A stretch of 32,000 nt of DNA from Pyrolobus fumarii 1A (GCF_000223395.1 NC_015931.1:1230001-1262000); one strand, 5' to 3'. Shown: positions 3,973 to 23,592, numbered from the stretch's first letter. The notes: generated by a model from the letters alone, not told the origin. Translations and numbers: made by a program.

Positions 3973-4326
3973 TTGCCCTTCGCATCGGGGTTTGTGCTAC
4001 TAACGGCAGAGTACAAGGATGAGCCGAAGAGAAGCGAGGTTAAGAAGCACCTGGAGAGTCTGGGGTTCGAGGTTTATGACATAGGCGACCCTTACCGTAT
4101 AGTCTTCTACGTGGAGGTCGACGACCTGGGCGGGTTAGAGCGGATTATAAAGGCTGCCGAGACCCACGAGGGTATCGCGAAGGCGTACATAGTCTATGGC
4201 TTCCTGGGCGACAGTGAGACTAAGAGGAGAATAAACGAGGCTCTCCTGAGTGGAGAGGCTGAGCTAGACGAGTCTACAAGGGAACTTATAGAGTGGATAC
4301 TCTCGAGGCTGAAAGCTCAGGGCTAA
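3973..4326 (+). CDS. Small cytoplasmic protein with a ferredoxin-like beta-alpha-beta-beta-alpha-beta pattern (NapD-like or stand-alone RAM/ACT-like) plus a helical tail
   Basis: 117 aa with no signal peptide. The segment FVLLTAEY...EVKKHLESLGFEVYDIG..YRIVFYVEVDDLGGLERIIKAAETHEGIAKAYIVYG follows the pattern I remember for NapD (and for RAM domains). The start is TTG 3973, with GTG 3991 as an alternative. A TATA-like 'ttgataataa' sits at 3925-3934. The 3' end overlaps the convergent napH-like gene by 4 nt. Confidence 0.5.
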   Translation: MPFASGFVLLTAEYKDEPKRSEVKKHLESLGFEVYDIGDPYRIVFYVEVDDLGGLERIIKAAETHEGIAKAYIVYGFLGDSETKRRINEALLSGEAELDESTRELIEWILSRLKAQG

Positions 4327-5258
4327 GCCTTTCTTCTCTCGTCTCCTCCTCTTGTTCTACGCCGAGGCAGGCCTATTGTAAGGGCTAGTACCCTCTCTGG
4401 ACATACTTCGACGCACCTACCGCACCTGAAGCACCGGTAATCTCTGATATCCTCACCTCTCTTCGCGATATTCGCGACATCTATTGTCATTGGGCACACT
4501 ACGCTACACAATTGGCAGAATGTGCACCTATTACTGGCTACTGTTTTTACGGTCAACAGGCTATACTTGTTCATCACGTGGCCGAATATGTTGCCCGCGG
4601 GGCATATGAACCTACACCATAGCCTCTTTACGCCGAACACTCTCTCAGCAACAATGTTGATCGCGAGCGCCGCTAGCGTTGTGGTGACCCATGCGATTGC
4701 CAGGCTTATTGTCGCCCCGGGCACGTTATACAGTATACCGACTAGCGTCGCAGCTAGCTTCGTGGTACCTGCGATCGGCGATATTGTCGTGAAGAATGGC
4801 TGAGCGAACACTACGCTAAGCAGTAGGAATGCTATCATCGCCGCAACTGGCACCAGCTTCTCTAAACGCCCGGCCTCATGTGGCCTTGCGAATCTCGGGC
4901 TTCTAGGCGTTGCCAGTTTACGCTCGAATATCGAGAATAGCATGTCCATCGGGCAGACCCACCCGCAGAAGAATCTCCCGAGCACACTATAGAGGGTGAA
5001 CACCACGAGAACAGCAATGATAGACTCTAGCGTCGCTTGGTGCGAGGCTACGAGCTGCTCGAGCCACGCGAATATATCGAGCATTGGTATCGTCTTGAGT
5101 ATCCTCGAGGAGGCTAGGCTACCCTCTATTATTGCCCCGTGGAACAACACCTGCGTGGCAAACAGCAACAGCAATGCTACCTGCATAGAGCGTCGTAGTA
5201 GCGTGTACTTGCCTCTAGGCGGCCTGCCTCTCAGGATAGCAAAGAGTTTCCTAACCAT
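4323..5258 (-). CDS. napH: NapH/MauN-type membrane polyferredoxin (quinol dehydrogenase membrane subunit, COG0348)
   Basis: About four TM helices are present, with the two family-typical CxxCP motifs (FFCGWVCPMDMLF and LWCRFICPAGNIFG). The C-terminus carries two CxxCxxCxxxCP ferredoxin motifs (CTFCQLCSVVCP, CFRCGRCVEVCP). I prefer ATG 5258 as the start: it is preceded by gagggtga and lies 11 nt after the napG stop. The track's 5321 start would overlap napG by 53 nt. Confidence 0.8.
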   Translation of the reverse strand: MVRKLFAILRGRPPRGKYTLLRRSMQVALLLLFATQVLFHGAIIEGSLASSRILKTIPMLDIFAWLEQLVASHQATLESIIAVLVVFTLYSVLGRFFCGWVCPMDMLFSIFERKLATPRSPRFARPHEAGRLEKLVPVAAMIAFLLLSVVFAQPFFTTISPIAGTTKLAATLVGILYNVPGATISLAIAWVTTTLAALAINIVAERVFGVKRLWCRFICPAGNIFGHVMNKYSLLTVKTVASNRCTFCQLCSVVCPMTIDVANIAKRGEDIRDYRCFRCGRCVEVCPERVLALTIGLPRRRTRGGDERRKA

Positions 5259-5268
5259 GCTCTCACCC

Positions 5269-6279
5269 TCAACTCTCCTCATTCTCTGTCTCGAGAGTCT
5301 CAACAACTTTCTCGGAGACAATACCCCTAATGTTTATGATATAGTCGCTATTGACTATCATCGCCCTGAACGTCGCCTTTTCAGGATTCTCGCGCTCAGT
5401 ACGAAGTATCAACTCGAGATACTCTTCATAGCTCATACCAGTATTCTTGAAGTTCTTGGCTCTCCTCTCGTACTCCTCCCTAGGCAGAACGTGAATCGCA
5501 CTACCGTTTACCGGGCAGGCCGACACACACTGCCCGCAACCAGTGCACTTCTCTGGCCTCACCCGCGTGTGGACACCCCACTCGTTAAACGTGAACTCGA
5601 AAACCTCGGTGCCGAAGGGACACGCCTTTGCACAGCTGTAGCACTCGCCGCTGTTCCAAGCCCAGCATAGATCCGGGTCTATCATAGCGACGCCCATCCT
5701 AACCTCCTTGGGCTTAACTTCTCTCAATGCACCAGTGGGGCACACAATAGTACACTTCATGCACAGGGTACACGGGTAATGCATAACATCTGGCACTATG
5801 GGCGTCCCTACACGCTCAAGCCCGCCCTCAACGCCAACGAGCCTTATAGCATAGTATCCCTCGTACAGGCAGGCATAGTAGCACAACCCGCAACGTACAC
5901 ATTTTGCATAAAAGTCTTCATCAGCACCTGGCGGTAAAAGCTCAAACCTATCCTCCTCGTAGGGCTTCACGTATGTCATGCACCGGTCGGGAAGCAAAGG
6001 ATTAGCAACACAGATCTTACCGTCACGCTCTATAAGTAGTCCAAGCGACTTGTAATACTCGTACCTTTCCCTATCACGCTCCGCATCAATCTCAAACTCC
6101 ACATAGTATACATTTTCTCCGCTTCTCTCGTTGCCGGCGCCGCGAGTCCCCTCTCCAGCCGCGAAGGAGGATGCCACGCTTCCAATACTAGCTGCTACTA
6201 CACCAGCCCCTACTGCCTTCAGAAACTCTCGACGTGAAAGGCGTGTAACACCACTTTTATCCATTACTCTTACCCCCAC
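5269..6279 (-). CDS. napG: NapG-like Tat-exported four-cluster [4Fe-4S] ferredoxin
   Basis: The N-terminus has a twin-arginine signal (SRREFLKAVGAGVVAAS). Four Cys clusters follow: CVRCGLCYYAC, CTLCMKCTIVCP, C..x7..CYSCAKACP and CTGCGQCVSACP. The gene sits directly upstream of the napH-like gene. Confidence 0.8.
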   Translation of the reverse strand: MGVRVMDKSGVTRLSRREFLKAVGAGVVAASIGSVASSFAAGEGTRGAGNERSGENVYYVEFEIDAERDRERYEYYKSLGLLIERDGKICVANPLLPDRCMTYVKPYEEDRFELLPPGADEDFYAKCVRCGLCYYACLYEGYYAIRLVGVEGGLERVGTPIVPDVMHYPCTLCMKCTIVCPTGALREVKPKEVRMGVAMIDPDLCWAWNSGECYSCAKACPFGTEVFEFTFNEWGVHTRVRPEKCTGCGQCVSACPVNGSAIHVLPREEYERRAKNFKNTGMSYEEYLELILRTERENPEKATFRAMIVNSDYIINIRGIVSEKVVETLETENEES

Positions 6280-6453: not shown

Positions 6454-9400
6454 TTAGTAGGCTAAGCTGTACTTGGGCTTACCAGTCTGCTCGGCCTCGG
6501 ACTTTGGTATCTCGTCGGGCCTTGCCTTCCTTATCCTCGCTGCACACGTCTTGAAGTCTGGCTGGAAGAAGTACGGCTGCACGTCGTAGTTGTCTAGTGT
6601 TAGCGCGTTGGCTAGCTTGTTCGGATCGAACCATGGCACGAACACGTAGTCGATTCTTGGGCCGCCTAGACCGGTCTTCGGGTCTAGTATGACCGCCTTC
6701 ACGGTCAGCTTACCGCGTGGGCTCTCAATCGTCACCCAGTCGCCCTTCTTGATACCGAGCTTCTCGGCTAGCTCCTTGGGTATCTCGACGTAGGCCTCTG
6801 GCTTCGACTTCATAATCTCTGGCACCTTGCCGGTCATTGTCGCCGTGTGCCAGTGCTCGACAATCCTACCTGTGGTTACCACAAGTGGATACTCCGTCGC
6901 ATCCCTCACAGTGATGACACGCCCGTCCTCAGTCCTGTATCTTAGCGCGAAGCCCGGCACCTCAGCAGGCGCTAACGCAATCTCGAAGAGCGCCTGGATG
7001 TCACCCTTGTACTTCTTTACAGCCTCGCCCCAGCTCATCGTCTCGAGTATCTTTAGCGCCTTCTCTGGGTCGCCGCTGGCTGGGTACGCCTTGTACGTCT
7101 TCACGACAGTGAATGGTCCCTTGGGCGCCGCGAATACCGATATCTTGCCCTGCTTCAATACTAGGTTAGCGTCTAGCTTCATCTCTTGTATTATCACCTC
7201 CTTGTTGATCTTGACCTCGCCAGTCTCATGGTCCATCTTGATTGGTAGCCATGGCCTCGCCCAGATGGTCATCCTACCGGTCGGCTTGGCGTAGAACACC
7301 ACATACCAGCTCTCTGGCACCTTGCTAGCCTTCTTGTACTCGATGTCATCTATCTCCTCTACGATGTGCTTGAGCACCCACTTCATGAGCACTGGGTTCT
7401 TGGCTAGGCTGCCAAGCCACTTGTGCTTGTGTATCGGGTGCACCACGTTCTCGTCGAGGCTCTCTATGTACTTCTGTATCTCCTCGGGGCTGTTCATGTT
7501 CTTAATGTCATTGTATATCTTCTTGATGACGTCTGGGTCGGGCATTAGCGGGTCGTACGGGTAGGAGTACCTGCCGCAGGACTTGTACTTCTCATACCTC
7601 GCTTTGACGCTCGGGTTAGTCGCATACTGCTCTGGCCATGGCCACCTGAAGCCAGCCTCCAGCTTCCTGAATAACTCGCGCTTCACGTAGCTGAAGTCGT
7701 AGTAGGTGTTCTTGGCTAGGCTTAGTATGTCACGGTCCCATATCCTAGTGACGAACTCCTGGTGCCACTTCTTGTCACGGCTCTTCTCCACGATGTACTG
7801 GACCCAGCTCTTGCCTGCAGCCTTGGCCGCCTTGTCGACATCCTCTGGGAAGAAGCCGCTCACAAGACCCTTCGCAATTATACCCTCGTCTTCAAGCGCC
7901 TTACCGACCATCGCGAAGATTATGTGGTCAGCTACGGCCTCGCCCGGCGGTGTTATCAGGTACCTTGCTACGCTGTAGCGCCTCTCGCTACAACCGTACT
8001 TGAACTCCTTCTCGGACCAGGCCGCCGCCGGGAGTATCAGGTCTGCGACATCGGTGGTCCTTGTTGGGTAGATGTCGCTCACTATAACGAATGGGAACGC
8101 GGGATCATCGTCGTGCGGCTTTACCATACCAAGCCTGAACTTGTATACATTTGGTAGGCTGTGACCTGGGTTCGTCTCAGCGATCCACACTACCTTGATG
8201 ATACCCGCGCCAATCCTGCGGAATAGCTCAACAGCGTGTGGACCCGGAACCGGGTGCACATATACCTTCTCGATCTCCTTTTTGATCTGCTCTGGCGAGT
8301 AGCCACGCTCCTTTAGGTATTCCTCGGTGAGCTTCCTCCAGATCTTCTCCACCTGCTCCCTTGCTGCCTTCTTGGCGATCAGCCTACCGTATGGCAGGAC
8401 GTGAGCCAGGCCACCCTGGTCTCTAATGCCGCCACAGGCGTTCGGCTGACCAGTCAAGCTCCAAGTGCCGGAACCATACTTGCCAATCTTGCCTGTGAGC
8501 GCTAGTAGGTTGATTATGCTGTTAACAGCGTGCACACCCTGTATCTTCTGGTTGATGCCCATAGTCCAGAAGACTAGGATCCTGCCCCTCGCTATCCACT
8601 TCGCAGCAAGCCTAAGCGCCTCTACCGGGTCGATCTCAATGAATGGCGTGTCCTCCATCTTCACCTTGTCTGGGCTCAACTCGCCAGCCTTGATCAGCTT
8701 CTCAGCAGTCTCCTTGTTGATGAGTGGCTTCTGGTCGCCGAAGAGTATCTTAGCCATAACCTCCGGCTTGTAGAACTCAAGGAACTTGAGGTATAGCGCG
8801 AATCCTCTCCACCAGTCCTTCTCTATCTCCTCCTCACTCGTGTACTTCTTACCGATGCTCGGGTACACCTTGTAGTTGGCAGCGTTGCTGGCAGTGGTAC
8901 CCATGTCCCAGACCTTATTCAAGTCGCCAAGGTTGTTCAGCGGTGTGTTGTAATCCTTGAGTGCCCAGGTCTTCGCGGTCTCAACGGGTATCGCGAAGTC
9001 CGCGTGCCTCTTGAGCCACTTTAGGTCGATGTACTCGCCCTTGCACTCAACCTTACCCTCCTTGACGTCAATCACCTTACACTTGTCTAGCTCGAACGCC
9101 ACTATGTGGGCGAGCGTGTGGAGAAGCGCAACGTCCATACTCCAACGGATTGGCAGCCATAGGTCGGCAATGGTACCGCTCCTGGTCTTCCTGGGGTCAG
9201 CTAGTATCACCTTGGCATTCGGGTTTTTCTTCTTCACCTCAGAGATGCGGCCGAAGAGTATTGGATGCGCCTCAGCAGTATTGCTACCGATTATCATGAA
9301 TGTATCTGCATGCACGCCCAGATCGGGCTCCGGCACGTCTATGTAGTCGTAGCTTACCTCAGGCTCATCAGCACCAAAGCTGGATATGTAACCGCCAACG

Positions 9401-10206
9401 GCGCTAACCATACAGAGCCTTGGGTTACCGTCGAGGTTGTTGGTGTGTATACCGCCCTTAGTCAGCTTGTTGATAACGTAGCTCTCCTCGGTGCCAAGCT
9501 GACCACTTCCATAGTAGGCGAAGCTGTGTGGACCATACTTGTTCAGAGCATACTTTAGCACCGCGGTTAGGAACTTGATCGCGGTGTCCCAGTCGATCTC
9601 GACGAAGTTCTCCTTGACGTGCTCCTCTACGGTCTTGGTTGCATCTAGGTTCTTGCTTACCTGGCGCTTCTTGACCCTAGGCGCCTCGGGTATCTCCTCG
9701 GGGGTTATTGGTGGCCTGTTCTTACCTGGGATTATCCAGTCCTTGTTGACTAGAGGTTTCTTGAAGCGTAGCTCCATAGCCCTCTTGTTACCGCCGTAGC
9801 CTAGAGCCTTGTGGATGTAGAAGGCCTTGACGCAGAGGGCACCCCTGTTAACCGGGTAGTTCGGGTCGCCGATAACCGCGAGAATGTCCTTAGCCATGCC
9901 AGTAGCCGGGTCCATTACTACCTGGAGCTTCACGCCACAACCAGTACCGCAGTACCTGCAGGGACCGAGCAGAAGGGTGGATATCTTCGGCCTGGCGGTT
10001 GTCGTCGCGGTCTCTGTTGGAGTTGCACCCACGGTTGTCGTGATAGTCTTAGTCTGGGTTAGAACCTCTGTAAGTGTGGTCGTTACAGTCTCGACGATTT
10101 TCTCCTTGCGACCGGTCATATAGTAGGTCGCGGCTCCGCCCACAGCTGCTAGCGCGGCACCAAGGGCAATTGCTTTTAGAATATCACGACGCGTTTGGTC
10201 GGGCAA
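6454..10206 (-). CDS. napA: NapA-like (periplasmic-nitrate-reductase-type) Mo/W-bis-pyranopterin oxidoreductase catalytic subunit; Tat signal/anchor, Thr-rich linker, unusually long at 1250 aa
   Basis: A twin-arginine motif is present (TRRDILKAIALGAALAAV). The [4Fe-4S] motif CRYCGTGCG (9934-9960) is followed by ...CVKAF. The motif GNPRLCMVSAVGGYISSFGADEP contains a Cys (codon 9412-9414) at the NapA Mo-ligand position. Other NapA-like segments are IIGSNTAEAHPILFGRI, SLTGQPNACGG, EHWHTATMTGKVPE and FVPWFDPNKLANALTLD. All resemble NapA signatures as I remember them. The start is TTG 10206, preceded by aggaggggt. Confidence 0.85.
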   Translation of the reverse strand: MPDQTRRDILKAIALGAALAAVGGAATYYMTGRKEKIVETVTTTLTEVLTQTKTITTTVGATPTETATTTARPKISTLLLGPCRYCGTGCGVKLQVVMDPATGMAKDILAVIGDPNYPVNRGALCVKAFYIHKALGYGGNKRAMELRFKKPLVNKDWIIPGKNRPPITPEEIPEAPRVKKRQVSKNLDATKTVEEHVKENFVEIDWDTAIKFLTAVLKYALNKYGPHSFAYYGSGQLGTEESYVINKLTKGGIHTNNLDGNPRLCMVSAVGGYISSFGADEPEVSYDYIDVPEPDLGVHADTFMIIGSNTAEAHPILFGRISEVKKKNPNAKVILADPRKTRSGTIADLWLPIRWSMDVALLHTLAHIVAFELDKCKVIDVKEGKVECKGEYIDLKWLKRHADFAIPVETAKTWALKDYNTPLNNLGDLNKVWDMGTTASNAANYKVYPSIGKKYTSEEEIEKDWWRGFALYLKFLEFYKPEVMAKILFGDQKPLINKETAEKLIKAGELSPDKVKMEDTPFIEIDPVEALRLAAKWIARGRILVFWTMGINQKIQGVHAVNSIINLLALTGKIGKYGSGTWSLTGQPNACGGIRDQGGLAHVLPYGRLIAKKAAREQVEKIWRKLTEEYLKERGYSPEQIKKEIEKVYVHPVPGPHAVELFRRIGAGIIKVVWIAETNPGHSLPNVYKFRLGMVKPHDDDPAFPFVIVSDIYPTRTTDVADLILPAAAWSEKEFKYGCSERRYSVARYLITPPGEAVADHIIFAMVGKALEDEGIIAKGLVSGFFPEDVDKAAKAAGKSWVQYIVEKSRDKKWHQEFVTRIWDRDILSLAKNTYYDFSYVKRELFRKLEAGFRWPWPEQYATNPSVKARYEKYKSCGRYSYPYDPLMPDPDVIKKIYNDIKNMNSPEEIQKYIESLDENVVHPIHKHKWLGSLAKNPVLMKWVLKHIVEEIDDIEYKKASKVPESWYVVFYAKPTGRMTIWARPWLPIKMDHETGEVKINKEVIIQEMKLDANLVLKQGKISVFAAPKGPFTVVKTYKAYPASGDPEKALKILETMSWGEAVKKYKGDIQALFEIALAPAEVPGFALRYRTEDGRVITVRDATEYPLVVTTGRIVEHWHTATMTGKVPEIMKSKPEAYVEIPKELAEKLGIKKGDWVTIESPRGKLTVKAVILDPKTGLGGPRIDYVFVPWFDPNKLANALTLDNYDVQPYFFQPDFKTCAARIRKARPDEIPKSEAEQTGKPKYSLAY

Positions 10207-11486: not shown

Positions 11487-12170
11487 TTACTTACGAGATA
11501 CTGCTAGATACCCGCCAGCACCTATCACGAACAATAGAGCAGCGATAGCAATTGCCAGTGTTACATCATGCTTTACTACCTCGCCCTTGGTGACTACCGT
11601 CGTTGTCGGCTTGGTCGTTGTCACTAGAGTGGTTGTCACGATTGTCGTGGTGGTTACCTTTGGTTCGACAGTGATCTCCTTGAAGCCGTAATAGTCGCCA
11701 ACGACGCTAGCGCTACCATCAGCCGCTAGAACAGCTATCTTGAAGGTCACTGGCACTGGTTTTTCAGGGGCTTTCCACTCGAATGTCCACTCGCGCTTAG
11801 TGGCACCCTGCGCGGTGTGAGTCAACATCCTGCCATCTGGCGTCTCGGAAACTTGAGTCGTATCATCGACAGGCTTTAGTTCGCCAGCATTCACCAGGAC
11901 TGCAAAGCCGCCACAATAGGCGCCTTCGGGGCACTTGGGCCCTTTCGTTATCTTTATCGTTATCTTGTAGACTTTACCGGGTTCGTATTTGCTGGGCAAA
12001 CCGGTGACAGTAAACTCGGCAGTTCCCGCTGGCTGGTGACACTGGTTACATTCTAGTCTTGGGGCGCCGCTGCTCATCGCGCCAACATGCACTGCAACTA
12101 GGCCGACAACTACTAGTACAGCCACCAGGGCAGTCAATAATGCGTACTTCTTCAACATCAATATGCTCAC
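11487..12170 (-). CDS. Monohaem c-type cytochrome with a beta-rich (DOMON/reeler-like?) domain, a Thr-rich stalk and a C-terminal TM anchor
   Basis: An N-terminal signal/TM segment is followed by a single CNQCH haem-c motif (12036-12050). A ~120-aa beta-strand-patterned domain follows (FTVTGLP..YKITIKIT..GGFAVLV..WTFEWKAP..FKIAVLAADG). Next is the linker KVTTTTIVTTTLVTTTKPTTTVVT (11586-11657). The protein ends with the TM LAIAIAALLFVIGAGGYLAV and the tail SRK. Confidence 0.75.
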   Translation of the reverse strand: MSILMLKKYALLTALVAVLVVVGLVAVHVGAMSSGAPRLECNQCHQPAGTAEFTVTGLPSKYEPGKVYKITIKITKGPKCPEGAYCGGFAVLVNAGELKPVDDTTQVSETPDGRMLTHTAQGATKREWTFEWKAPEKPVPVTFKIAVLAADGSASVVGDYYGFKEITVEPKVTTTTIVTTTLVTTTKPTTTVVTKGEVVKHDVTLAIAIAALLFVIGAGGYLAVSRK

Positions 12171-12468
12171 TCCTCCAATGCGAGGCTCAGTGGCATAGAT
12201 CAGACAAAATTAGTATTATGCCTCAAATCTTCGGATATTTTTTACTTTTTCCTTTGGTTTTGATAGTCATCATAATATCTGCATGATTAACGACAATTAA
12301 GCATACCATCACCTTTCTAGCCAATTGTGGTGAAGCGAGCCACTACGATAGATTTGCAATATTCTTTAGCTATACATTATTGTTGTTAACATCCGAGTCC
12401 GAAAAATTATGGTTGAAGATATAACTGGATGCGTCACGCCGCCCGCCTTATGGAATAGTGGGGTGACC

Positions 12469-14988
12469 ATGAGTATGAGCCGTGTTGTAACTCTTGTTTT
12501 CGTTGTATCGATCCTAGCACTTCTAGCGGTCAGCGCTACGGCAGCCGCAGCAACCGTACCCTTCGGTGACGAGGTAGTCAAGAAGGTAGATGAACTGCTT
12601 AAGAGCGACATTGTCAGCCCACAGACCAAGGCGTGTATCCAGTGCCACCTGTCAGTCACCCCGATGATCGTCTACGAGTGGGCTATGAGCAAACACGCTC
12701 AGATGACACCAGCTCAGGTTGCCGAGCTGTACAAGAAGCTTGGCGAGCCTCAGTGGGCTAACATGATTGCCGAGAAGTTCAAGAACTACAAGTACGTCGT
12801 CGGCTGCTACGAGTGTCACGGCATGTTCGCCGACACCGACAGACCCGATGCCGTCGAGCACATACCTGGCGTCAAGATCGTCGCAGTTGTGACTAGGAAG
12901 GACTGTGGTCAGTGCCACCCGAAGGAAAACATTGAGATCAGCTGGACCTGGCACGCCACTGCTGCATTCGCACCTATCAAGCCATGGTACACTGCCATAA
13001 TCAAGTACGCTGTGAGCGAGGGCGCGAACCCGTTTGGCGATGAGAATGCAAAGGCGCTCTACGAGAAGTACCTGCCACCATTCCTAACCAAGCAGCGCGA
13101 CAAGGAGCCAGTCTACTGGAACTTCTACAAGGAGATTGCAAAGGCCGTAATGGAGTACATGATGACCGGCAAGGAGAACGACATAGTGAAGATGCTCAAG
13201 GAGGCCACCGGCATGGTAACGCCGTACGACCTTGACTGGAAGAAGTGGATTAGCCCACTATGGCCAGCTAGCGGCGTCCTCAACAACACTATCCTCGGCA
13301 AGCTAGGCATTAAGATAACCATTGCCGCGATGGACGGCACTGTCGCAACTGTGAGCAACGTGATGTCCCACCCAACCTTCCGCAACGCCTATGTCTATCA
13401 CGCATGTCTAGAGTGCCACGGCGCTGCCGTGATACCCTATGGTTATGCTGAGGACCCAACCTACAAGGTGAAGATAGTCAAGCTATGGGGCTGGCCGAAC
13501 AACGGTGCTGGCCGTATCGACCCGGACGGTAGCATTGGCACCTGCACTGCATGCCACCCACGCCACATGTTCAGCGTGAAGCAGGCTAGGGAGCCATGGA
13601 CCTGTGGCCAGTGCCACCTAGGCTACGACCACCCACACATCGAGATTTACGAGGAGAGCAAGCATGGTAACATCTACGACGCTTATGGCGAGGAGTGGAA
13701 CTGGGAGCAGATACCGTGGAGGCCGGGCATTGACTTCAACGCGCCAACCTGCGCAACCTGCCACATGAGTGCGCTAGCCGACAAGGATGGCAACATTATC
13801 GTGCCAGGCACTCACGACCTAGTGAAGAGGCTAGTATGGGACCAGATGCACTTCTTCAGTCACCCGAAGCCAGTGATACCAGACAACTTCCAGACTGCCA
13901 CCTTCCTCAAGTTCAGCATGCTGAAGGGCAAGTACCCAGAGGATGTAATGAAGGCATATGAGCAGACCGGCAGGTATCCGGTCTTCATGGGTCTAAAGAT
14001 CGTTGACGAGTGTCAGCCGGGCCAGGTGTGCTTCCCAAGGCTACCGAAGGTCGAGCTTACCGGCGAGCTAGCCAAGCACCGTGAGGAGATGAAGAAGGTC
14101 TGTAGGTTCTGCCATGCAAGCCAGTGGGTCGACAACTACTTCAGAACCGCCGACCAGAACATAATCGAGTACGACATTGTCGCCAGGTTCGCGTTTAGCC
14201 TACTACAGCTAGCATGGGCCGAGGGCATCCACGACAAGAAGAACCTGCTAGACGAGTACATGGAGATCATGTGGTACTACATCTGGCACCACGACGGTAG
14301 GAGGTGGAGGAACGGCGCCACCATGATGGGTCCAGACTATGCACACTGGCTTGGCATCGTTGACACTGTGATGGACAAGCTCGGCAGGATGATAAACTAC
14401 CTAGCAACCGCACTCAAGGTCAAGAAGCTCGAGACCGAGCTAGCTGCCCTCAAGCAGCAGGCTGCTGGCGCGCCATACGCGCCAGAGCTGGTCGAGAAGA
14501 TTGCAAAGCTAGAGAGGATGATAGAGGAGCTGAAGAGCAAGCTAGCAGCCCTAGAGGCGCAGGTGCCGACCCTAAAGGCTAAGCTAACCGAGCTATCCAG
14601 CGACGTGTCTGCACTTGAGAGCGACTACACGAGCTTCAAAGGCGATGTGAGCGAGATCGTGAAGAGAGTTGAGGAGCTTAGCAAGCAGCTAGAGACCATT
14701 GCACCCGAGGCTAAGAAGATAACCGAGCTTGTCAGTCAGGTCAAGGACATTGTCGCCAAGCTAGAGACTCTCAACAAGAAGGTTGAGGAGGTGAGCGGCA
14801 AGGTCGAGAAGATGGGCGAGGAGGTGGGCACCGTCAAGTCCAAGGTTGAGAAGGTCAGCGAGGAGGTAAGCAGCGTCACCGAGCAGCTAGGTGCCGTGAG
14901 CGCCAACAGCTACACGCTAGCCGGCATCGCACTAGCAGTAGCTGCTATCGCACTAGGCCTAGCGGTTATACGAGGCAGAGGAGCCTAA
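12469..14988 (+). CDS. Octahaem c-type cytochrome of the hydroxylamine oxidoreductase (HAO) family, fused to a long coiled-coil stalk and a C-terminal TM anchor (paralog 1)
   Basis: Eight CxxCH motifs are present: CIQCH, CYECH, CGQCH, CLECH, CTACH, CGQCH, CATCH, CRFCH. There is an HAO-family block, WGWPNNGAGRIDPDGSIGTCTACHPRHMFSVKQAREPWTCGQCHLGYDHPHIEIYEESKHGN. The signal peptide is MSMSRVVTLVFVVSILALLAVSATAAAA. I prefer ATG 12469 as the start because ggggtga precedes it; the track start is 12409. A coiled coil spans ~14410-14904 and a TM helix spans 14911-14970. Confidence 0.85.
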   Translation: MSMSRVVTLVFVVSILALLAVSATAAAATVPFGDEVVKKVDELLKSDIVSPQTKACIQCHLSVTPMIVYEWAMSKHAQMTPAQVAELYKKLGEPQWANMIAEKFKNYKYVVGCYECHGMFADTDRPDAVEHIPGVKIVAVVTRKDCGQCHPKENIEISWTWHATAAFAPIKPWYTAIIKYAVSEGANPFGDENAKALYEKYLPPFLTKQRDKEPVYWNFYKEIAKAVMEYMMTGKENDIVKMLKEATGMVTPYDLDWKKWISPLWPASGVLNNTILGKLGIKITIAAMDGTVATVSNVMSHPTFRNAYVYHACLECHGAAVIPYGYAEDPTYKVKIVKLWGWPNNGAGRIDPDGSIGTCTACHPRHMFSVKQAREPWTCGQCHLGYDHPHIEIYEESKHGNIYDAYGEEWNWEQIPWRPGIDFNAPTCATCHMSALADKDGNIIVPGTHDLVKRLVWDQMHFFSHPKPVIPDNFQTATFLKFSMLKGKYPEDVMKAYEQTGRYPVFMGLKIVDECQPGQVCFPRLPKVELTGELAKHREEMKKVCRFCHASQWVDNYFRTADQNIIEYDIVARFAFSLLQLAWAEGIHDKKNLLDEYMEIMWYYIWHHDGRRWRNGATMMGPDYAHWLGIVDTVMDKLGRMINYLATALKVKKLETELAALKQQAAGAPYAPELVEKIAKLERMIEELKSKLAALEAQVPTLKAKLTELSSDVSALESDYTSFKGDVSEIVKRVEELSKQLETIAPEAKKITELVSQVKDIVAKLETLNKKVEEVSGKVEKMGEEVGTVKSKVEKVSEEVSSVTEQLGAVSANSYTLAGIALAVAAIALGLAVIRGRGA
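14779..14904 (+). repeat. Six consecutive 21-nt (heptad) imperfect repeats inside the stalk-coding region
   Basis: The repeats translate as KVEEVSG/KVEKMGE/EVGTVKS/KVEKVSE/EVSSVTE/QLGAVSA. Hydrophobic residues (V/L) sit at fixed heptad positions. The DNA shows the matching 21-nt periodicity (aaggttgaggaggtgagcggc / aaggtcgagaagatgggcgag ...). Confidence 0.6.
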
Positions 14989-15063: not shown

Positions 15064-16629
15064 ATGCGTATCCTCTATTCTCATCTTTTTACCATCCTTC
15101 TCATACTGGTATTCACGCAGTATGCTTTTGCGTCTCTGATATCGAACTATCCGGGTCAACCCATAGCGTATGAACTCGTGATCAACTTTACACACGCCTC
15201 AGAATCACAAGAGTGGCGCGTTCACATTGAACTTGTAGGATACAACGCAAATTTCACGTGTTCATCGTCTCTGAAGCCTAACCCGCTCTACATGCAGACT
15301 AGGAGTATCTCCCCTCGACTAATCGCCACGTCGTTATACTATGTGCTTGACAGCGTGTGCCCAAAAGTGATAGATGTTTTGAAGAGCGCGAAAAACGGCT
15401 TACTGGAGCTTGTGATGACAGCACCCAAAGACTATGTTGTAAGGAGCGCGCTAGACTGGCGGGGTTACGGGGCACCCGGCGGGCCATACCTACTACCGGT
15501 CACCCTTTTCAAGAGGTACTACATGTATGACGGCATTGTGGTCGCCTATACTAGGGTCTACGAGACGATCGACAATCCGTCGTTGAACCTGAGTATAGTT
15601 CTGCCGAGAGGGTTTAACACTGCACAGCTTGATGCTGTTGTCGAGACTGTAACCGCAGTTAGAAACGGGCTGAGCAGGTGGCTTGGCCCCAGTCCTAGGA
15701 GCCCCGTTGTAATCGTGATCGCTTCGCCAGAGGAGAGTGACTACATGCCTCCCGGTACCGCGCATAGTACAGGAGCCATGCTCTACATAAAACCTGACAT
15801 TGATGTCGACCTGGCTGGTCTAATCCATGCTGTTGCGCATGAATCTGCTCATGGTTGGTTCAACTTTGGGCTATTGTACGGCGACTTTGGGTTCCAAGAG
15901 GGTCTTGCAGAGTTCCTTGCGTTGAACGCGCTCCGTGTATATGCGCCAAGGTTGTTCGGGATAGCAGAACGCTATGTGTTATTCTCGTTGAAGAGCGACG
16001 ATAGGTACGCGACGTGGCTCAAGGTTCATGCTGCCATATGGTACTCTGTGATATACGCGTGCAACGAGAGTTTATACACAGATCTCTTACGTGGTTTGTT
16101 CCGCCAGGCTCTCGCGGAGAACGGCAAGTACGTTACATTGTTCGATTTGATTAACTCCCTTGTGGCACACGCACCACAATATTGTAGACAGAGGCTCAGG
16201 TCTCTGTTAGGCCCTACTCTACTATCCGCTGCCGAGGGTAGTAGCAGCTGGCCGTTCGTGAACACTACTGTGATAGAGGATGCCCTTAGGCTGCTCAACA
16301 GTCCAGTTTCTTCAAACTTCACCGTTAACGGGACGTGTAGAGGACAGCCGCTAGAGGAGCCACCAGCGAGGATTAGCCATACACGCACAGGTGTCAATGA
16401 AATGCCACGCGAAAAAGTTACCCTCAACAGCACCTCAACCGAGAAGAGCGTTACACACGCCCCACAATCGCCTACTCGCACACAGAACGTTGAGAGGGGC
16501 GGACCAGCTGGCAGTTTCTCATTAGAGCCTAGCAGTTCTCTTTACGGGCAAATACCATATCTCGCGCTACTAGCTTTTATAGCGGTGTTTAGCATTTTTG
16601 CGTTTCGTGCGAGAATAAACCGTGAATGA
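15064..16629 (+). CDS. Membrane-anchored extracellular gluzincin (M1-like, peptidase clan MA) zinc metalloprotease, N-glycosylation-sequon rich
   Basis: An N-terminal signal/TM segment is present. The motif HAVAHESAHGWFNFGLLYGDFGFQEGLAEF contains HExxH (15838-15852) followed by a downstream QEGLA. This resembles the M1 HExxHx18E / NEGFA arrangement, but the spacing is 3 residues shorter. There are many NxS/T sequons. The C-terminal TM is IPYLALLAFIAVFSIFAF, with the tail RARINRE. Confidence 0.65.
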   Translation: MRILYSHLFTILLILVFTQYAFASLISNYPGQPIAYELVINFTHASESQEWRVHIELVGYNANFTCSSSLKPNPLYMQTRSISPRLIATSLYYVLDSVCPKVIDVLKSAKNGLLELVMTAPKDYVVRSALDWRGYGAPGGPYLLPVTLFKRYYMYDGIVVAYTRVYETIDNPSLNLSIVLPRGFNTAQLDAVVETVTAVRNGLSRWLGPSPRSPVVIVIASPEESDYMPPGTAHSTGAMLYIKPDIDVDLAGLIHAVAHESAHGWFNFGLLYGDFGFQEGLAEFLALNALRVYAPRLFGIAERYVLFSLKSDDRYATWLKVHAAIWYSVIYACNESLYTDLLRGLFRQALAENGKYVTLFDLINSLVAHAPQYCRQRLRSLLGPTLLSAAEGSSSWPFVNTTVIEDALRLLNSPVSSNFTVNGTCRGQPLEEPPARISHTRTGVNEMPREKVTLNSTSTEKSVTHAPQSPTRTQNVERGGPAGSFSLEPSSSLYGQIPYLALLAFIAVFSIFAFRARINRE

Positions 16630-16693: not shown

Positions 16694-17572
16694 ATGTCGT
16701 ACACTACTTCTAAGCCACTGGTAGCATATTACGTTTGTAAGTTTAGGTGTCCCCTTTTCACGCTCACCCGCGAGGCATACACCTTAGCAATGAATACTCC
16801 GTTCTCCGAGGATGCCTGTTTTAATGGCGCGTTCTCCAGTTTGGCTATTCGCATCCTCAGGGTTAACATATCCGTGAACGATGGGTTCACAGAAATCTGG
16901 GCGAGAGTTAGTGGCAAAAAGCAGTTTGTCGAGAGCTATGTAAAGGCGCTTACAAAGGCTAAGGGCATTTACTTTCAACTGATATATGCTAACAGCTTTG
17001 GAAGGATATTGCGCATTCTAGTGCCGAGAGAGTATTGTAAGAATTGCATCGCTAGCCTGGGAGGCGACAACGGGTGGTGCTGCTGTCCTCTACTCTCTGC
17101 CCCAGTAGGGTCAATGGCCAAGACGACAATCATAACTCCCTGCGGCGCGGTATACGAGCTTGTGGTGTCGAAGAGAAGTGTGCTAGAGAAGCTCGAGAAA
17201 ACATGTTGGGACTGCGAGCTCATACTAACACATGCTGTCGACGAGTACGACTATATGCTGACTGAGAAGCAGGAAAGGATTCTCATCGAAGCCTATTTGC
17301 GCGGCTATTTCAGCTTCCCCCGCAAGATTAGCATGAAGGACCTTGCTAAGGAGCTTGGCATGAGCGTCTCGTCGCTAGCCGAACTCCTTAGGAAGGCTGA
17401 GGCTAAGGTGGTTGAAGCGTTTGTTAGACACGAGCTGCCGCATTATCTAGTCGAGCATATAATCAGGAGAGGATCTGAGACTAGCGACATTGTAGGTAAA
17501 CACGCTAGGCGCACACCCAAGGATACTCACAAAGCCGTTGAAGAGGATCGGGCTATACTGGTCAGGAAGTAA
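16694..17572 (+). CDS. Transcriptional regulator with an N-terminal Cys-rich sensor-like domain and a C-terminal HTH_10 (Bat/DmsR/NarO-type) DNA-binding domain
   Basis: The C-terminal segment LTEKQERILIEAYLRGYFSFPRKISMKDLAKELGMSVSSLAELLRKAEAKVVEAF is the classic bacterio-opsin-activator-type HTH. The N-terminal ~190 aa hold clustered cysteines: CKFRCP, CKNC, WCCCP, CWDC. Confidence 0.75.
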   Translation: MSYTTSKPLVAYYVCKFRCPLFTLTREAYTLAMNTPFSEDACFNGAFSSLAIRILRVNISVNDGFTEIWARVSGKKQFVESYVKALTKAKGIYFQLIYANSFGRILRILVPREYCKNCIASLGGDNGWCCCPLLSAPVGSMAKTTIITPCGAVYELVVSKRSVLEKLEKTCWDCELILTHAVDEYDYMLTEKQERILIEAYLRGYFSFPRKISMKDLAKELGMSVSSLAELLRKAEAKVVEAFVRHELPHYLVEHIIRRGSETSDIVGKHARRTPKDTHKAVEEDRAILVRK

Positions 17573-17700: not shown

Positions 17701-19101
17701 GTGTGGCTCTGGGCGTTGATTGTGACGAGGGGCCGCATAGTCAAGATTCACGTTATTGTTGCATACACATTGGTCGCCCTGGTGTTGCTATGGGGTGTCT
17801 TGCTCTCCCCGCCATTTAGAGAGCTTCGTGTAGCGCTTGGGTTTCCTGCTGAGTTGCCCGGCTCGAGGTTTAACGGATGGGCTGCTGAGATTATAGCAAG
17901 TGATATAGAAGATGCGAGTTTTTACCTTGCAAGGGTTTCTCACTATTATCACGTTGTGTTTGCCGCTCTACTCTACGCGTCTCTAGTTCTCAGCGCCGGT
18001 GTACTCGGGGACCGCATACCTCTGAACACGCTGACCTTGGCTCTAGTCGGTGCTTTGATGACGGCGGTTGGTGGTATTGGTTACGCGTATTTTGCCAGGT
18101 TGTTCTATCTTCACGGTTTATTCATAGCTGGGCTCGCGTTTCTCTTCGCGGCTGGCGTGCTTGTCGCACAGAGTCTCTGGAAACCGCGAAGTGAGATTGA
18201 GATCGGGTTGTTTGCTTCTGTACTCTTGTTGCTTATTGGCGGTGTCGTGGGCGGGTATGTTGGAAGTAGCTACATGGACGATAGCCTCGCAGATGCGTTT
18301 GTGAAGGCGAAGATAGCATCCAGGTTCGATCCGGATCTTGGCGAGCACGTGGAAGTTTGGAGAGCCATGACGGGCCACGCGCATGCAATGGTTACACTTG
18401 TTCTCACCGGCTCTATGCTCGTTGGGTTTGCAGCTACCGGGCCGCGGTGGGCTAGGCCGAGATTGGCGAAGCTCAGCCTCTGGGCCGTAACGCTCTCCCT
18501 GGCTGCGACTGCTGTAGGCTCCTATCTTGTCTGGCCTTTAGGCGGCATCGCACACAAGATAATCACACCATCTAGTCTGGTGCTGCTCATTGCCAGTCTT
18601 CTAGCGGCTTTTGCTCTTAGAGCGCCCCCGCCGATGACCGCTGATGGCGCATTGGTACACGGGTTACGTGTAGGTCTGGTCTCAATGTGGCCTCTTGTGG
18701 TGGTGCCAGGGGCTATCGTCGCTGTTAGCCTACACAAGCCCGTCTTCTTTGACCCGCCTATGCGTGACCCCTCCCGCGACTGGGCCGAGCTAGCCTACAG
18801 TATCGGCCATTGGCATATACTACTAGCAGCATGGGGTGTTACACTGCTAATCACTCTGCTAGCTAGCATAGGTAGGAGTAGGCTAGCCGTACTGTCAGCA
18901 TGGCTGGCTGTAGTTGGCTTCCTGGTGGCTAGCGCAGGGGTAAACCTCTACGCTCTCACAGCGCCGCCGGGGGCCTATAGCCCCAACCCTTACGATAATC
19001 TCTGGGTTCGTCTCCTCATAGAGCCGGGATTGACAATCATGGCCTTGGCAGCGATACTTGGGTATGTCGAGGCTCTACGCTGGGCACTCAACAAGCAATG
19101 A
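17701..19101 (+). CDS. Uncharacterised polytopic membrane protein (~12 TM) with paired histidine motifs in TM helices
   Basis: I count twelve hydrophobic stretches by eye. The His pairs are HYYH (aa 81-84, start of TM2), GHAHAM (aa 225-230, start of TM6) and GHWH (aa 369-372, codons 18808-18816, TM10). Single His residues occur at 138, 285, 320 and 345. The start is GTG. I recognise no family. Confidence 0.7.
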   Translation: MWLWALIVTRGRIVKIHVIVAYTLVALVLLWGVLLSPPFRELRVALGFPAELPGSRFNGWAAEIIASDIEDASFYLARVSHYYHVVFAALLYASLVLSAGVLGDRIPLNTLTLALVGALMTAVGGIGYAYFARLFYLHGLFIAGLAFLFAAGVLVAQSLWKPRSEIEIGLFASVLLLLIGGVVGGYVGSSYMDDSLADAFVKAKIASRFDPDLGEHVEVWRAMTGHAHAMVTLVLTGSMLVGFAATGPRWARPRLAKLSLWAVTLSLAATAVGSYLVWPLGGIAHKIITPSSLVLLIASLLAAFALRAPPPMTADGALVHGLRVGLVSMWPLVVVPGAIVAVSLHKPVFFDPPMRDPSRDWAELAYSIGHWHILLAAWGVTLLITLLASIGRSRLAVLSAWLAVVGFLVASAGVNLYALTAPPGAYSPNPYDNLWVRLLIEPGLTIMALAAILGYVEALRWALNKQ

Positions 19102-19802: not shown

Positions 19803-21476
19803 GTGTTGAAGGGTATGGAAGCAAGGCAAATTCTCGTGTTTGCTATTGTCGCGGTAATCGTTGCCGCCGCAGCATACTTCGCTGGCTATAGCGCTGCCCC
19901 GACAAAGACAGTGACATCCACGGTGGAGTCGGTAGCTACTTTGACAGTGACGAAAACGCAAATGCTTACAGAGACTTACTCGGAGATCCGCACGGTGACA
20001 GTGACTACAACACATACGGTTGTAAAGCGAGTCGGCTTCATGCCAAAACAGATAAACGTCCAGGAGGAGGTCAAGAAGATTATGAATAAGCTATCGCCGC
20101 AGAGCAGGGCGTGCGTAAACTGCCACATGAGATACACTCCCGGCATAGTCGCCGACTGGCTGATGAGCAAGCACGCGCGTGTAACGCCAGCCGAGGCCTG
20201 GAAGAAGCCGGAGCTTCAGCGTGAGATATCCGCCCTACCACCGGAGAACATGAGGGATTACATCGTCGGCTGTTACGAGTGCCACGGCCTAAACCCGGAC
20301 AAGCACCCAGATACCTTCGAGCACTTTGGCTTTAAGATCCACACTATAGTGACGCCGCCGGATTGCGCCGTCTGTCACCCCGTGGAGGTCGAGGAGTACG
20401 GCAGGAGCGTGAAGGCACACGCTCACAACAACCTGGTGAAGAACCCGGTGTACATGCTGCTCGTCAACGCCTCAACACAGATAAACATGTTTGGCATCAA
20501 GGCGGGCTACCATCTGGCTGTTGAGAGCGCCTGCTTCGCCTGCCACGGTGCGAAGGTAGAGTTCGTCGGCCTGAAGGAGATCCAGGTGGGCAATCTCAAG
20601 CTAAAGGTGCCAGTCTACAAGGGCTGGCCGAACCACGGTGTGGGCAGAGTAAACCCGGATGGCAGCGAGGGCTCTTGTACAGCATGCCACCCGAGACACG
20701 CCTTTAGCATCGAGGTTGCACGCAGCCCATACACCTGCTCCCAGTGCCACCTAGACCCAGACGTCCCAGCCTTCGACGTCTGGAAGGAGAGCAAGCACGG
20801 CAACATATTCCTAGCACAGTGGAAGACTTACAACATGACTGCTGTGCCATGGGTGCCTGGCAGAGACTTCCGCGCGCCATCCTGCGCGGTCTGCCACTTC
20901 TCGCTACTAGTCGATAAGAATGGCAACGTGATAGCTCCCAGGACGCACGACGTAGGCTCAAGGATATGGATTAGGCTCTTCGGCGTCTATGCGCACCCGC
21001 AGCCGAAGATTGGCGAGACGTGGAAGATTAAGAACAAGGATGGTCTGCCGCTCCCATACTCGCTGCTGGACGCCGAGCCAGCCTGGGACTATGTGATCAG
21101 CAAGGAGGAGATGGCGAAGAGACGCGAGCAGATGATAAAGATTTGTAGTGCGTGCCACTCGGAGAACTACGCTAGAGAGAGGATAGCGTGGTTCGAGGGC
21201 GTTGTCAACGAGACTAACAAGGCGATACTGGCGTCCACCCAGCTACTCGTAGAGGCATGGAAGAAGGGTGTCGCCAAGGGCCTGCTGACCGGCGACAACC
21301 CGTTCGACGAGTACATCGAGAGACTGTGGATAGAGACTTGGCTATTCTACGCTAACAGCATCAGATATGGCGCCGCGATGAACGGCCCAGACTGGACGAC
21401 GTTCAAGAGAGGCTGGTACCAGCTAACCAGGACGCTCGGCGAGATGCAGATGCTAATAGAGCTGCACGGAAAGTAA
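19803..21476 (+). CDS. Octahaem c-type cytochrome of the HAO family with an N-terminal TM anchor and Thr-rich linker (paralog 2)
   Basis: Eight CxxCH motifs are present: CVNCH, CYECH, CAVCH, CFACH, CTACH, CSQCH, CAVCH, CSACH. The HAO block is YKGWPNHGVGRVNPDGSEGSCTACHPRHAFSIEVARSPYTCSQCHLDPDVPAFDVWKESKHGN. The anchor is ILVFAIVAVIVAAAAYFAGY and the Thr/Val linker spans 19899-20018. The start is GTG 19803 or ATG 19815. Confidence 0.85.
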   Translation: MLKGMEARQILVFAIVAVIVAAAAYFAGYSAAPTKTVTSTVESVATLTVTKTQMLTETYSEIRTVTVTTTHTVVKRVGFMPKQINVQEEVKKIMNKLSPQSRACVNCHMRYTPGIVADWLMSKHARVTPAEAWKKPELQREISALPPENMRDYIVGCYECHGLNPDKHPDTFEHFGFKIHTIVTPPDCAVCHPVEVEEYGRSVKAHAHNNLVKNPVYMLLVNASTQINMFGIKAGYHLAVESACFACHGAKVEFVGLKEIQVGNLKLKVPVYKGWPNHGVGRVNPDGSEGSCTACHPRHAFSIEVARSPYTCSQCHLDPDVPAFDVWKESKHGNIFLAQWKTYNMTAVPWVPGRDFRAPSCAVCHFSLLVDKNGNVIAPRTHDVGSRIWIRLFGVYAHPQPKIGETWKIKNKDGLPLPYSLLDAEPAWDYVISKEEMAKRREQMIKICSACHSENYARERIAWFEGVVNETNKAILASTQLLVEAWKKGVAKGLLTGDNPFDEYIERLWIETWLFYANSIRYGAAMNGPDWTTFKRGWYQLTRTLGEMQMLIELHGK

Positions 21477-23010: not shown

Positions 23011-23592
23011 TCATTGTTTTATTTCGCCCTGAAGGCTTTCCCTTAGCTCTCGTTTGAGCATCTCCAGTTCACGTTCGTGTTCGTCGCTCCATGCTAGTCT
23101 TGCTTTGAGTTGTTCAACGCGCCTTATAATCTCTGATGCAAGAGCTATGATGTCGTAGGCGGCTTCTTCCCTACTACGGTATTTGGAAAGAGCTAGGTCG
23201 GGATCGGGACCATGATTCTGATAGTCGTGAAGATTTAGTGCTTTATCTGTCCAGGCGGAGATCGACGTATGGCCTATCTTTTCAAGCAGCTGTGATAGTA
23301 CTTTGAGCCTTGTTGTGGGTAAGCGTGGCACAGCTCTCTCACTTAACCACTTCCGTTCCTCCTCGCTCTTCACTCTCCTCATCAGCTTGTCTAGCTCGAG
23401 TCTTAGCAAAGCTGCAAGCAGTGCCCTCCACGCTTGGAACACTTTTCCGGCAGCGTTTCTCGTCAACCCCTCGTTAAGGAACTTTAATGCAAGCCTGGCC
23501 TCTGCAAGAGCTTCAAGAATACGGGCTGAGGCATACGCTTCGCTCGTAGGTTTCGGCAGAGGGGCTTCCAGCAGAGTATACTCTTTGCCCAA
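23011..23592 (-). CDS. PaREP1-family protein (crenarchaeal, HEPN-superfamily-like)
   Basis: LEALAEARLALKFLNEGLTRNAAGKVFQAWRALLAALL and ALNLHDYQNHGPDPDLALSKY match the PaREP1/PaREP8 family pattern as I remember it. AT-rich non-coding DNA flanks the gene on both sides. Confidence 0.7.
   Translation of the reverse strand: MGKEYTLLEAPLPKPTSEAYASARILEALAEARLALKFLNEGLTRNAAGKVFQAWRALLAALLRLELDKLMRRVKSEEERKWLSERAVPRLPTTRLKVLSQLLEKIGHTSISAWTDKALNLHDYQNHGPDPDLALSKYRSREEAAYDIIALASEIIRRVEQLKARLAWSDEHERELEMLKRELRESLQGEIKQ

Follow-up and report, generated by a model that had tools for sequence, protein, structure and literature searches.

A gene on the plus strand of Pyrolobus fumarii 1A, located at 12469..14988 of the analyzed window (NC_015931.1:1230001-1262000, the whole 32,000-nucleotide stretch to which all coordinates below refer unless otherwise noted), encodes an octahaem cytochrome of the HAO family in which the haem head is followed by a coiled-coil stalk and a C-terminal membrane anchor. 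This protein (839 amino acids (aa) plus stop, from the open reading frame list) represents a known enzyme family in a conserved head-hinge-rod-anchor design that is tuned by lineage. Respiratory multihaem enzymes are usually pictured as soluble periplasmic proteins or as docked at the membrane. We propose, at a probability of roughly 0.6, that the protein acts as a stalk-elevated, membrane-tethered trimeric enzyme reducing nitrite and/or hydroxylamine in the quasi-periplasm; we are moderately confident of the architecture and less so of the substrate.

Regarding the start of the gene, the open reading frame spans 12409..14988 (+) and offers an earlier possible start at 12409. The ATG at 12469 is preferred because it is preceded by a Shine-Dalgarno-like GGGGTGA motif and because the start of the NCBI entry (P0001, 837 aa, "multiheme c-type cytochrome [Pyrolobus fumarii]", 100% identical) lies only two codons after it; residue 1 hereafter denotes this ATG. 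The N-terminal signal peptide MSMSRVVTLVFVVSILALLAVSATAAAAT (residues 1 to ~29, 12469..12555) was read from the sequence and corresponds to a helix at residues 4-25 in the AlphaFold2 (AF2) model, with a putative cleavage site at its end. The haem head follows at residues ~30-648 (12556..14412). Its eight CxxCH motifs, at residues 56, 113, 146, 313, 359, 379, 428, and 545, lie within 12634-14115 and are all invariant in 70 homologues. The head matches Pfam PF13447 (E 1.9e-24, 86.8 bits vs a cut-off of 21.9), and its best solved match is IhOCC of Ignicoccus (4QO5; E 1.2e-81 by sequence and 4e-112 with the family profile). Beyond 4QO5, the structural and sequence matches are 1FGJ (Nitrosomonas HAO), 4N4J (HOX), 6HIF (HDH), and 6H5L (Kustc0458); the chains 1FGJ, 4FAS, 6M0P, and 6H5L match at ~1e-21 by sequence and ~1e-37 with the family profile. 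The AF2 monomer model, built on the 70 homologues, has a mean predicted local distance difference test (pLDDT) score of 85.7, with the head above 90. When this model was searched against the PDB with Foldseek, 4QO5 was recovered at E 8.8e-25 (TM-score 0.74), and all 11 significant matches were HAO-family chains (HAO, HOX, HDH, and IhOCC) of ~500 residues, none of which (0/11) is stalked. The head is thus predicted to adopt the HAO fold, and its identification as an HAO-family octahaem cytochrome in the initial annotation is supported by sequence and predicted fold.

The head carries a lineage-specific insert between haems 3 and 4 (residues 180-310, 13006..13398, pLDDT 82-98). Counted in alignment columns, this insert comprises 131 aa here and in the Pyrodictiaceae, 86-123 in other archaeal relatives, and 54 in bacterial ones; in the phmmer alignment, the region ~180-311 faces only ~20 residues of 4QO5, being much shorter in IhOCC. 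At the other end of the head, the last helix of the model (residues 622-667) runs unbroken into the first segment of the stalk. The oxidizing members HAO, HOX, and HDH bear a Tyr-haem cross-link (catalytic haem 4). HMMER alignments of the Pyrolobus head to 1FGJ end at chain residue 402, short of the cross-link region, even with the family profile, and the reductive direction of the stalked enzyme is suggested from the gene context only.

The stalk comprises residues 649-816 (168 aa, window 14413-14916), in agreement with the ~165-residue heptad region that had been noticed behind the haem head. A heptad score, defined as the strong-hydrophobic occupancy at the best a/d register minus that at the remaining positions in 28-residue windows, averages 0.83 over the stalk, where 99 of 141 windows reach at least 0.8, and 0.25 over the head. 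Shuffling the stalk residues 500 times gave a mean of 0.265 (standard deviation (SD) 0.039, maximum 0.386), which places the stalk ~14 SD higher. The Fourier peak of stalk hydrophobicity lies at exactly 3.50 residues, indicating canonical left-handed heptads; a right-handed undecad coil like that of tetrabrachion was therefore ruled out. The heptads had also been described as uninterrupted, and this description does not hold: the stalk contains four prolines (669, 672, 700, and 746), the register breaks at AAGAPYAPE (665-673), and a +3 shift is located between residues ~745 and ~770 in the scan with 28-residue windows. The register is continuous inside two segments of 74 and 69 residues and not over the whole stalk. 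Four parts are hence distinguished, all on the plus strand: a short neck coiled coil, CC0 (LKVKKLETELAALKQQ, residues 649-664, 14413..14460), defined from the tail alignment and the register track; the hinge AAGAPYAPE with two prolines and the register break (residues 665-673, 14461..14487), where the AF2 helix is broken at 668-671; CC1 in a single heptad register (residues 674-747, 14488..14709); and CC2 with the register shifted by +3 (residues 748-816, 14710..14916), the last two being delimited by the register scan.

CC1 has A, I, I, L, V, L, V, Y, V, V, and L at its a positions and seven Leu followed by F, I, L, and I at its d positions; it carries a conserved LAALEAQVP motif, and Pro700 and Pro746 occupy heptad positions b and f, respectively. 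In the core of CC2, the a and d positions are both occupied by beta-branched residues (Val/Val). Across the family, the a position is occupied by Leu (29%), Ile (22%), Val (22%), and Ala (11%), with Asn outside the ten commonest residues (each of those listed reaching at least 1%), and the d position by Leu (51%), Val (12%), and Ile (10%), with 22% beta-branched residues; the e and g positions are rich in Glu, Lys, and Gln. The DNA of CC2 contains a 42-bp tandem repeat at 14799-14878 (+; 1.9 copies, 81% match) encoding KVEKMGEEVGTVKS / KVEKVSEEVSSVTE, a duplicated two-heptad unit. Behind CC2, the C-terminal transmembrane (TM) helix LAGIALAVAAIALGLAVI (residues 817-834, 14917..14970) has a mean Kyte-Doolittle value of 2.72 in its best 18-residue window and corresponds to a helix at 817-838 in the AF2 model. 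It is followed by the translated basic tail RGRGA plus stop (14971..14988), which is predicted to be cytoplasmic by the positive-inside rule. Both the helix and the basic tail had been noticed before and are present.

A tail survey of ~64 archaeal clusters (90% identity) related to the stalked protein recovered both stalked and stalk-less relatives, and their tails, measured as the distance from a conserved GPDYAHW motif to the TM helix, fall into four classes that follow lineage. Tails of 43-50 residues without an anchor are found in the Ignicoccus hospitalis and I. pacificus type; tails of 52-56 residues, consisting of the neck plus a TM helix, in one metagenomic clade; tails of 105-150 residues with a TM helix and a stalk of ~75-120 residues in Thermodiscus and other Desulfurococcales; and tails of 185-225 residues with a TM helix and a stalk of ~155-195 residues in Pyrolobus, Pyrodictium, Hyperthermus, Pyrofollis, and relatives (Pyrodictiaceae). 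The design, which had been called unusual, is not unique to this protein; it is general among Pyrodictiaceae and frequent elsewhere in the Desulfurococcales, amounting to ~50 clusters at 90% identity. All homologues possess CC0, even the Ignicoccus forms that lack an anchor. The hinge is conserved among the long-stalk homologues and varies in length in the shorter ones. The head-proximal third of the stalk, which includes the hinge and LAALEAQVP, is the best conserved part (mean identity 0.63-0.71), and 48 of 50 stalked proteins retain the proline of LAALEAQVP; the distal two-thirds (mean identity 0.44-0.51) are spacer-like. The distance from this proline to the pre-TM aromatic residue falls into the classes 6 or 3 modulo 7 in 34 of 50 proteins and for 15 of 25 distinct lengths, for which the binomial p of ~0.001 (~0.02 when corrected for the choice of classes) is indicative only, as the sequences are related. 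Alignment gaps inside the rod measure 3, 4, 7, 14, or 21 residues among homologues. These patterns are those expected of a phase-constrained, continuous coiled coil and argue against independent helices joined by loops. The heptad statistics, the heptad-biased lengths of homologues, and the two-heptad duplication in the DNA lend strong support to a coiled-coil stalk that ends in a C-terminal anchor.

A stalk-only search of an index of 5.8 billion proteins returned nothing at E ≤ 1e-5, and a stalk-only phmmer search of 1.84 billion representatives returned 739 matches, just two of which are OCC representatives. Ten of these matches were scanned against Pfam and belong nearly all to generic coiled-coil families, giving no evidence among the stalk-only phmmer matches for a specific portable stalk module. 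Weak matches of the stalk in the PDB and Pfam include generic trimeric coils such as Lpp, reovirus sigma-1, the P22 needle, and fragments of trimeric autotransporter adhesins (TAAs).

As for the oligomeric state, HAO-family enzymes assemble via their C-terminal helices (PMC9250108), and HDH has been described as a covalently cross-linked homotrimer (PMC8840924); three neck helices would therefore leave the head together. The core composition (Asn uncommon at a, 22% beta-branched residues at d, and the Val/Val core of CC2) is compatible with a trimer, though not diagnostic of one. At 0.1485 nm per residue, 168 residues extend to at most 24.9 nm. The S-layer of P. fumarii encloses a quasi-periplasm 40 nm wide (PMC3156397), so that a rod of this length together with a head of several nm would fit beneath the S-layer canopy, and the ~25-nm geometry is plausible. 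Ignicoccus possesses two membranes and no S-layer (PMC4429474), and its orthologues have neither rod nor anchor. This distribution fits a stalk tied to envelope type, as seen in few independent lineages; with no stalk in S-layer-less Ignicoccus and the longest in Pyrodictiaceae, it suggests an organized use of the third dimension of the pseudo-periplasm.

The possible substrate is approached through the gene context. Genes for NapH-like (4323-5321, -), NapG-like (5269-6279, -, with a Tat motif), and NapA-like (6454-10206, -, 1250 aa) proteins, all identified by NCBIfam and Pfam, lie 2-8 kb from the stalked gene, and Nap-like genes are also located near the stalked orthologue of Hyperthermus. 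P. fumarii grows on H2 with nitrate, which is reduced to ammonia (PMC3156397); IhOCC is cited as an octahaem nitrite reductase in a passage of PMC9250108; and Campylobacterota HAO-family proteins convert nitrite to ammonium in vitro. Since Nap-like neighbours coincide with nitrate ammonification in the host and with the citation of IhOCC as a nitrite reductase, nitrite/hydroxylamine reduction would be the most economical reading. In the proposed scheme, the signal peptide would direct export, the Ccm system would load the eight haems outside the cell, and the protein would trimerize through the C-terminal helices typical of the HAO family. The last head helix would pass into the CC0 neck, where the three chains would exit the head together, and the conserved proline hinge after the neck would let the head swivel. 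CC1 and CC2 (~140 residues) would form a parallel three-stranded coiled-coil rod ending in three TM helices with positive-inside tails. Such a rod would lift the 24-haem head by up to ~25 nm, into the upper part of the 40-nm quasi-periplasm. There, nitrite and/or hydroxylamine would be reduced to ammonium, completing the H2-driven nitrate ammonification begun by the NapA/G/H-like enzyme, with electrons supplied from membrane-level quinol dehydrogenases via tethered or diffusible haem carriers.

Several points weigh against this proposal. On the structural side, the stalk contains the four prolines mentioned above, and the AF2 monomer breaks it at 668-671, 719-722, 743-747, 777-782, and 812-816 into five helices, with pLDDT dropping to 46-74 beyond ~residue 700. 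The break at 668-671, the hinge, is probably real because the linker length there varies freely among homologues. The trimeric, parallel, and fully extended state is suggested by family precedent and core composition only, and the CC1 core, with its beta-branched a and Leu d positions, would equally suit a dimer. No electron carrier bridging the ~25 nm was identified. On the side of the substrate, HAO clades I and II are mostly without assigned function, and some of their members have been suggested to act on sulfur substrates (PMC9213671). The Pyrodictium delaneyi orthologue Pdsh_09040 (8 haems, 98.1 kDa) is listed as a candidate for iron respiration, and P. delaneyi strain Hulk does not use nitrite (PMC5556600).

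The latter observations lead to an alternative in which the architecture is the same and the 24-haem head, located near the S-layer so as to reach acceptors kept out of the quasi-periplasm, would serve as a terminal reductase or electron conduit for sulfur compounds (thiosulfate or polysulfide) or extracellular Fe(III). Thiosulfate is among the acceptors respired by P. fumarii, the gene is carried by Hyperthermus and Pyrodictium, HAOs outside clade III have been proposed as sulfur reductases, and a site near the S-layer would suit contact with outside acceptors. However, Nap-like genes stand beside or near the stalked gene in both Pyrolobus and Hyperthermus, the nearest characterized relatives reduce nitrite as far as they are cited to do so, and the head would stay under the S-layer and not outside it. 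This alternative is accordingly regarded as unlikely.

A more far-reaching idea, which we consider speculative and quite improbable, is that the tethers at the locus form a graded-spacer vertical haem relay, of which the stalk would be the top tier and a lineage-tuned molecular ruler. Divergently from the stalked gene lies the gene for a monohaem (CNQCH) Reeler/"choice-of-anchor V" cytochrome (11487..12170, -), a candidate tethered electron carrier that consists of a beta-sandwich, a TTTT-rich linker, and a C-terminal TM helix and belongs to the Igni_0579/1052 family described in Kletzin 2015. Further downstream, a second octahaem HAO-family paralogue is encoded at 19803..21476 (+). This paralogue is the orthologue of IhOCC/Igni_0955 (4QO5, E 5e-184 over residues 83-554) and is 36% identical to the stalked head; it has an N-terminal TM helix followed by a ~50-aa Thr-rich linker and no C-terminal stalk. 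Tether lengths would then rise from the ~35-aa Thr linker of the monohaem protein through ~45-50 aa in the NapA-like protein and the IhOCC-type paralogue to the 168-aa rod with its hinge. If such a relay were real, electrons would pass stepwise across the 40 nm to a 24-haem head beneath the S-layer pores, substrates at or beyond the S-layer would become reducible, including extracellular Fe(III) in Pyrodictium, and archaea would possess a means of moving electrons over long extracytoplasmic distances that requires neither nanowires nor an outer membrane. The monohaem cytochrome was also considered as a conserved partner of the stalked protein and rejected, the adjacency being found only in Pyrolobus among the genomes checked. 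The NapA-like protein is itself unusually long and may be tethered: at its N-terminus, before the Fe4S4 cysteines, it carries a twin-arginine motif (TRRDILK) together with a hydrophobic segment and a Thr-rich linker of ~45 aa. A single locus thus holds two octahaem paralogues with opposite tethering, one by an N-terminal Thr linker and the other by a C-terminal coil.

It may also be asked whether the stalk and anchor are a transient device for assembly or targeting, from which the head is cut free as a soluble enzyme. Directly downstream of the stalked gene, a 521-aa protein with an M1-aminopeptidase fold, recognized by AF2 and Foldseek, is encoded at 15064..16629 (+), and this metallopeptidase may do the cleaving. 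It has an N-terminal signal/TM helix, and between its catalytic region, marked by an invariant HExxH...E motif, and its C-terminal TM helix lies a disordered Ser/Thr/Pro linker of ~100 aa. Its AF2 model matches ERAP1, LTA4H, and tricorn F3 at E ~1e-9 in Foldseek, and searches of Pfam, NCBIfam, and PDB sequences gave no match. The family consists of only 11 clusters, all Pyrodictiaceae-like. Synteny of its gene with the stalked gene extends to Pyrodictium, Hyperthermus, and Pyrofollis, the peptidase gene lying directly downstream in 4/4 Pyrodictiaceae loci and being absent beside the stalk-less Ignicoccus gene. Ignicoccus octahaem proteins, moreover, occur in soluble and membrane fractions alike (PMC4429474). 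The soluble Ignicoccus forms, however, lack the anchor already at the gene level. M1 enzymes are typically aminopeptidases and not endoproteases, and a disposable tether would need neither 168 phase-preserving heptad residues across ~50 clusters nor length classes by lineage. Release of the head by cleavage is therefore judged very unlikely. Apart from this question, NCBI appears to place the start of the M1-fold protein too far downstream (416 aa), given that the first ~100 residues of the longer form are conserved.

Another conceivable arrangement is that the helical region folds back into a compact antiparallel bundle, like that of methyl-accepting chemotaxis proteins (MCPs), or forms a thermostabilizing trimer clamp, so that the head would sit near the membrane. 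The breaks of the AF2 monomer fall at Pro/Gly sites, the PDB matches include antiparallel designs and MCPs, some homologues carry MCP names from JGI, and CC0 alone is retained in soluble homologues. Against this, the heptad phase carries through the AF2 "breaks" at 719-722 and 743-747, and the indels of homologues at these sites have the sizes given above, matching those of unbroken coiled coils. Hydrophobic residues form a narrow stripe confined to a/d, flanked by charged e and g positions, and segments as unequal as these (19/47/20/29/29 residues) would be ill suited to hairpins. CC0 is followed directly by the TM helix in the short-tail clade and therefore points at the membrane. A compact bundle or clamp consequently has only a slight probability. 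The MCP identity implied by the JGI name was rejected as well; the 25 best of 68 Pfam matches comprise haem and generic coiled-coil families and no MCP signalling domain, and the JGI names most likely reflect generic coiled-coil similarity. Other pipeline names given to stalked homologues are "nuclease with TOPRIM domain", "Zn-ribbon protein", "SlyX", and "alanine-zipper protein"; the homologues so named, "methyl-accepting chemotaxis protein" included, are P0009, P0011, P0017, P0019, P0029, and P0052. These names look like artefacts of coiled-coil similarity, suggesting that the coil has been misread rather than recognized.

The closest architectural parallel is SlaB of the Sulfolobales, in which a C-terminal helix of 132 residues carries Ig-like domains, assembles into a trimeric coiled coil, and is inserted into the membrane (PMC10903991, PMC5744192). 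SlaB (8QOX) shares with the Pyrolobus protein an extracellular head, a coiled coil, and a C-terminal TM helix, and as a trimer it spans ~20-30 nm of the pseudo-periplasm. The tail of the stalk matches SlaB weakly (NF040788, E 4.4e-10, 39.1 bits vs a cut-off of 700; 8qox_B, E 1.7e-6 with the family profile). Where the stalked protein has a haem domain, SlaB has a head of Ig-like/beta-sandwich domains, which bears the SlaA lattice and has no cofactors or catalytic activity. Judged from sequence, the stalk would work like that of SlaB, and yet the protein is not a SlaB. A purely structural role as a SlaB analogue, with the haem head supporting or docking the lattice, is hardly credible despite the SlaB-like C-terminal module and the inclusion of P0198, which joins beta-sandwich domains to a coiled coil as in SlaB, among the stalk-only matches reaching the C-terminal anchor, since a C3 trimer mismatches the p4 lattice of Pyrolobus, the same protein occurs in Pyrodictium and Hyperthermus with hexagonal lattices, the stalk reaches at most 25 nm in a 40-nm space, and the head is a conserved enzyme fold.

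Several other systems resemble parts of the proposed stalk-elevated enzyme. IhOCC (Igni_0955, I. hospitalis, 4QO5) is likewise a crenarchaeal octahaem protein of the HAO fold, but its crystallized chain of 521 aa stops right after the head and has neither the coiled coil nor the 131-aa insert; its true Pyrolobus orthologue is the paralogue at 19803-21476 and not the stalked gene. P0037 of I. hospitalis (638 aa) is 55% identical over the head and shares the insert and the CC0 neck, whereas it ends after ~20 neck residues without rod or TM helix, in a host without an S-layer. By exclusion of Igni_0955, P0037 would be Igni_1359, the closest purified relative. HAO, HOX, HDH (1FGJ, 4N4J, and 6HIF), and the reducing Kustc0458 (6H5L) have the same eight-haem core and fold, but these bacterial enzymes are soluble, ~500 aa long, and without a stalk. 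In the tetrabrachion-STABLE complex of Staphylothermus marinus, also a hyperthermophilic crenarchaeon, an enzyme similarly sits part-way up a long coiled-coil stalk; the STABLE protease is the sole enzyme on an archaeal coiled-coil stalk in a 2017 S-layer review. STABLE is not part of the stalk polypeptide but binds non-covalently to it, the S-layer stalk there being a four-stranded, right-handed undecad coil, whereas the Pyrolobus enzyme and its heptad stalk are one polypeptide. TAAs follow a similar head-stalk-anchor logic and Braun's lipoprotein Lpp is a trimeric periplasmic coiled-coil ruler, but both are bacterial, are anchored by a beta-barrel or lipid, and are not redox enzymes.

In the previous literature, Kletzin et al. 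(2015) listed the archaeal HAO cluster and noted C-terminal anchors, and the P. delaneyi genome paper listed the stalked orthologue as having no homology to known cytochromes (PMC5556600). The word "coiled" is absent from Kletzin 2015 and Soares 2022, a 2025 preprint makes no mention of a stalk, and the searchable literature combining HAO or multihaem with coiled-coil, stalk, or S-layer yielded no account of the stalk. The suggestion in the initial annotation that the design is possibly undescribed thus stands with respect to earlier descriptions in that literature. If the proposed architecture is correct, a 24-haem head would be held on a rigid rod tens of nm from the quinone pool, raising the question of how electrons travel at ~100 °C; the electron path to a head ~25 nm away would be the most interesting consequence of this architecture. 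The stalked enzyme would further provide a landmark identifiable by cryo-electron tomography in the envelopes of hyperthermophiles, a coiled-coil spacer for protein engineering that is hyperthermostable and adjustable in length, and a corrected reading of proteins that pipelines now name chemoreceptors, SlyX, or nucleases.

Regarding the remaining genes, an HTH_10 regulator (16694-17572) is encoded downstream of the M1-fold gene. Between this regulator and the second octahaem gene, a polytopic membrane protein of 466 aa without Pfam or NCBIfam match (17701-19101, +) could be a membrane partner of the haem proteins. In Hyperthermus butylicus (L002, 14330-17400) and a Desulfurococcales metagenome-assembled genome (L004, 4156-7164), a tetrahaem c/4Fe-4S/NrfD-type module adjoins the stalked gene; its tetrahaem cytochrome c has a signal peptide, a Pro-rich linker, and a C-terminal TM helix. 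This module looks like a membrane-level quinol dehydrogenase and could feed the octahaem enzyme. Toward the end of the window lie a PaREP1-family gene (23011-23592, -) and a series of genes at 23871-31998 (-) for cobamide salvage and assembly, comprising BtpA, CobS, an aminotransferase, a MobA-like NTP transferase, CbiZ, DBI_PRT (phosphoribosyltransferase-family), and CobD; they look like ordinary housekeeping context unrelated to the stalked enzyme.

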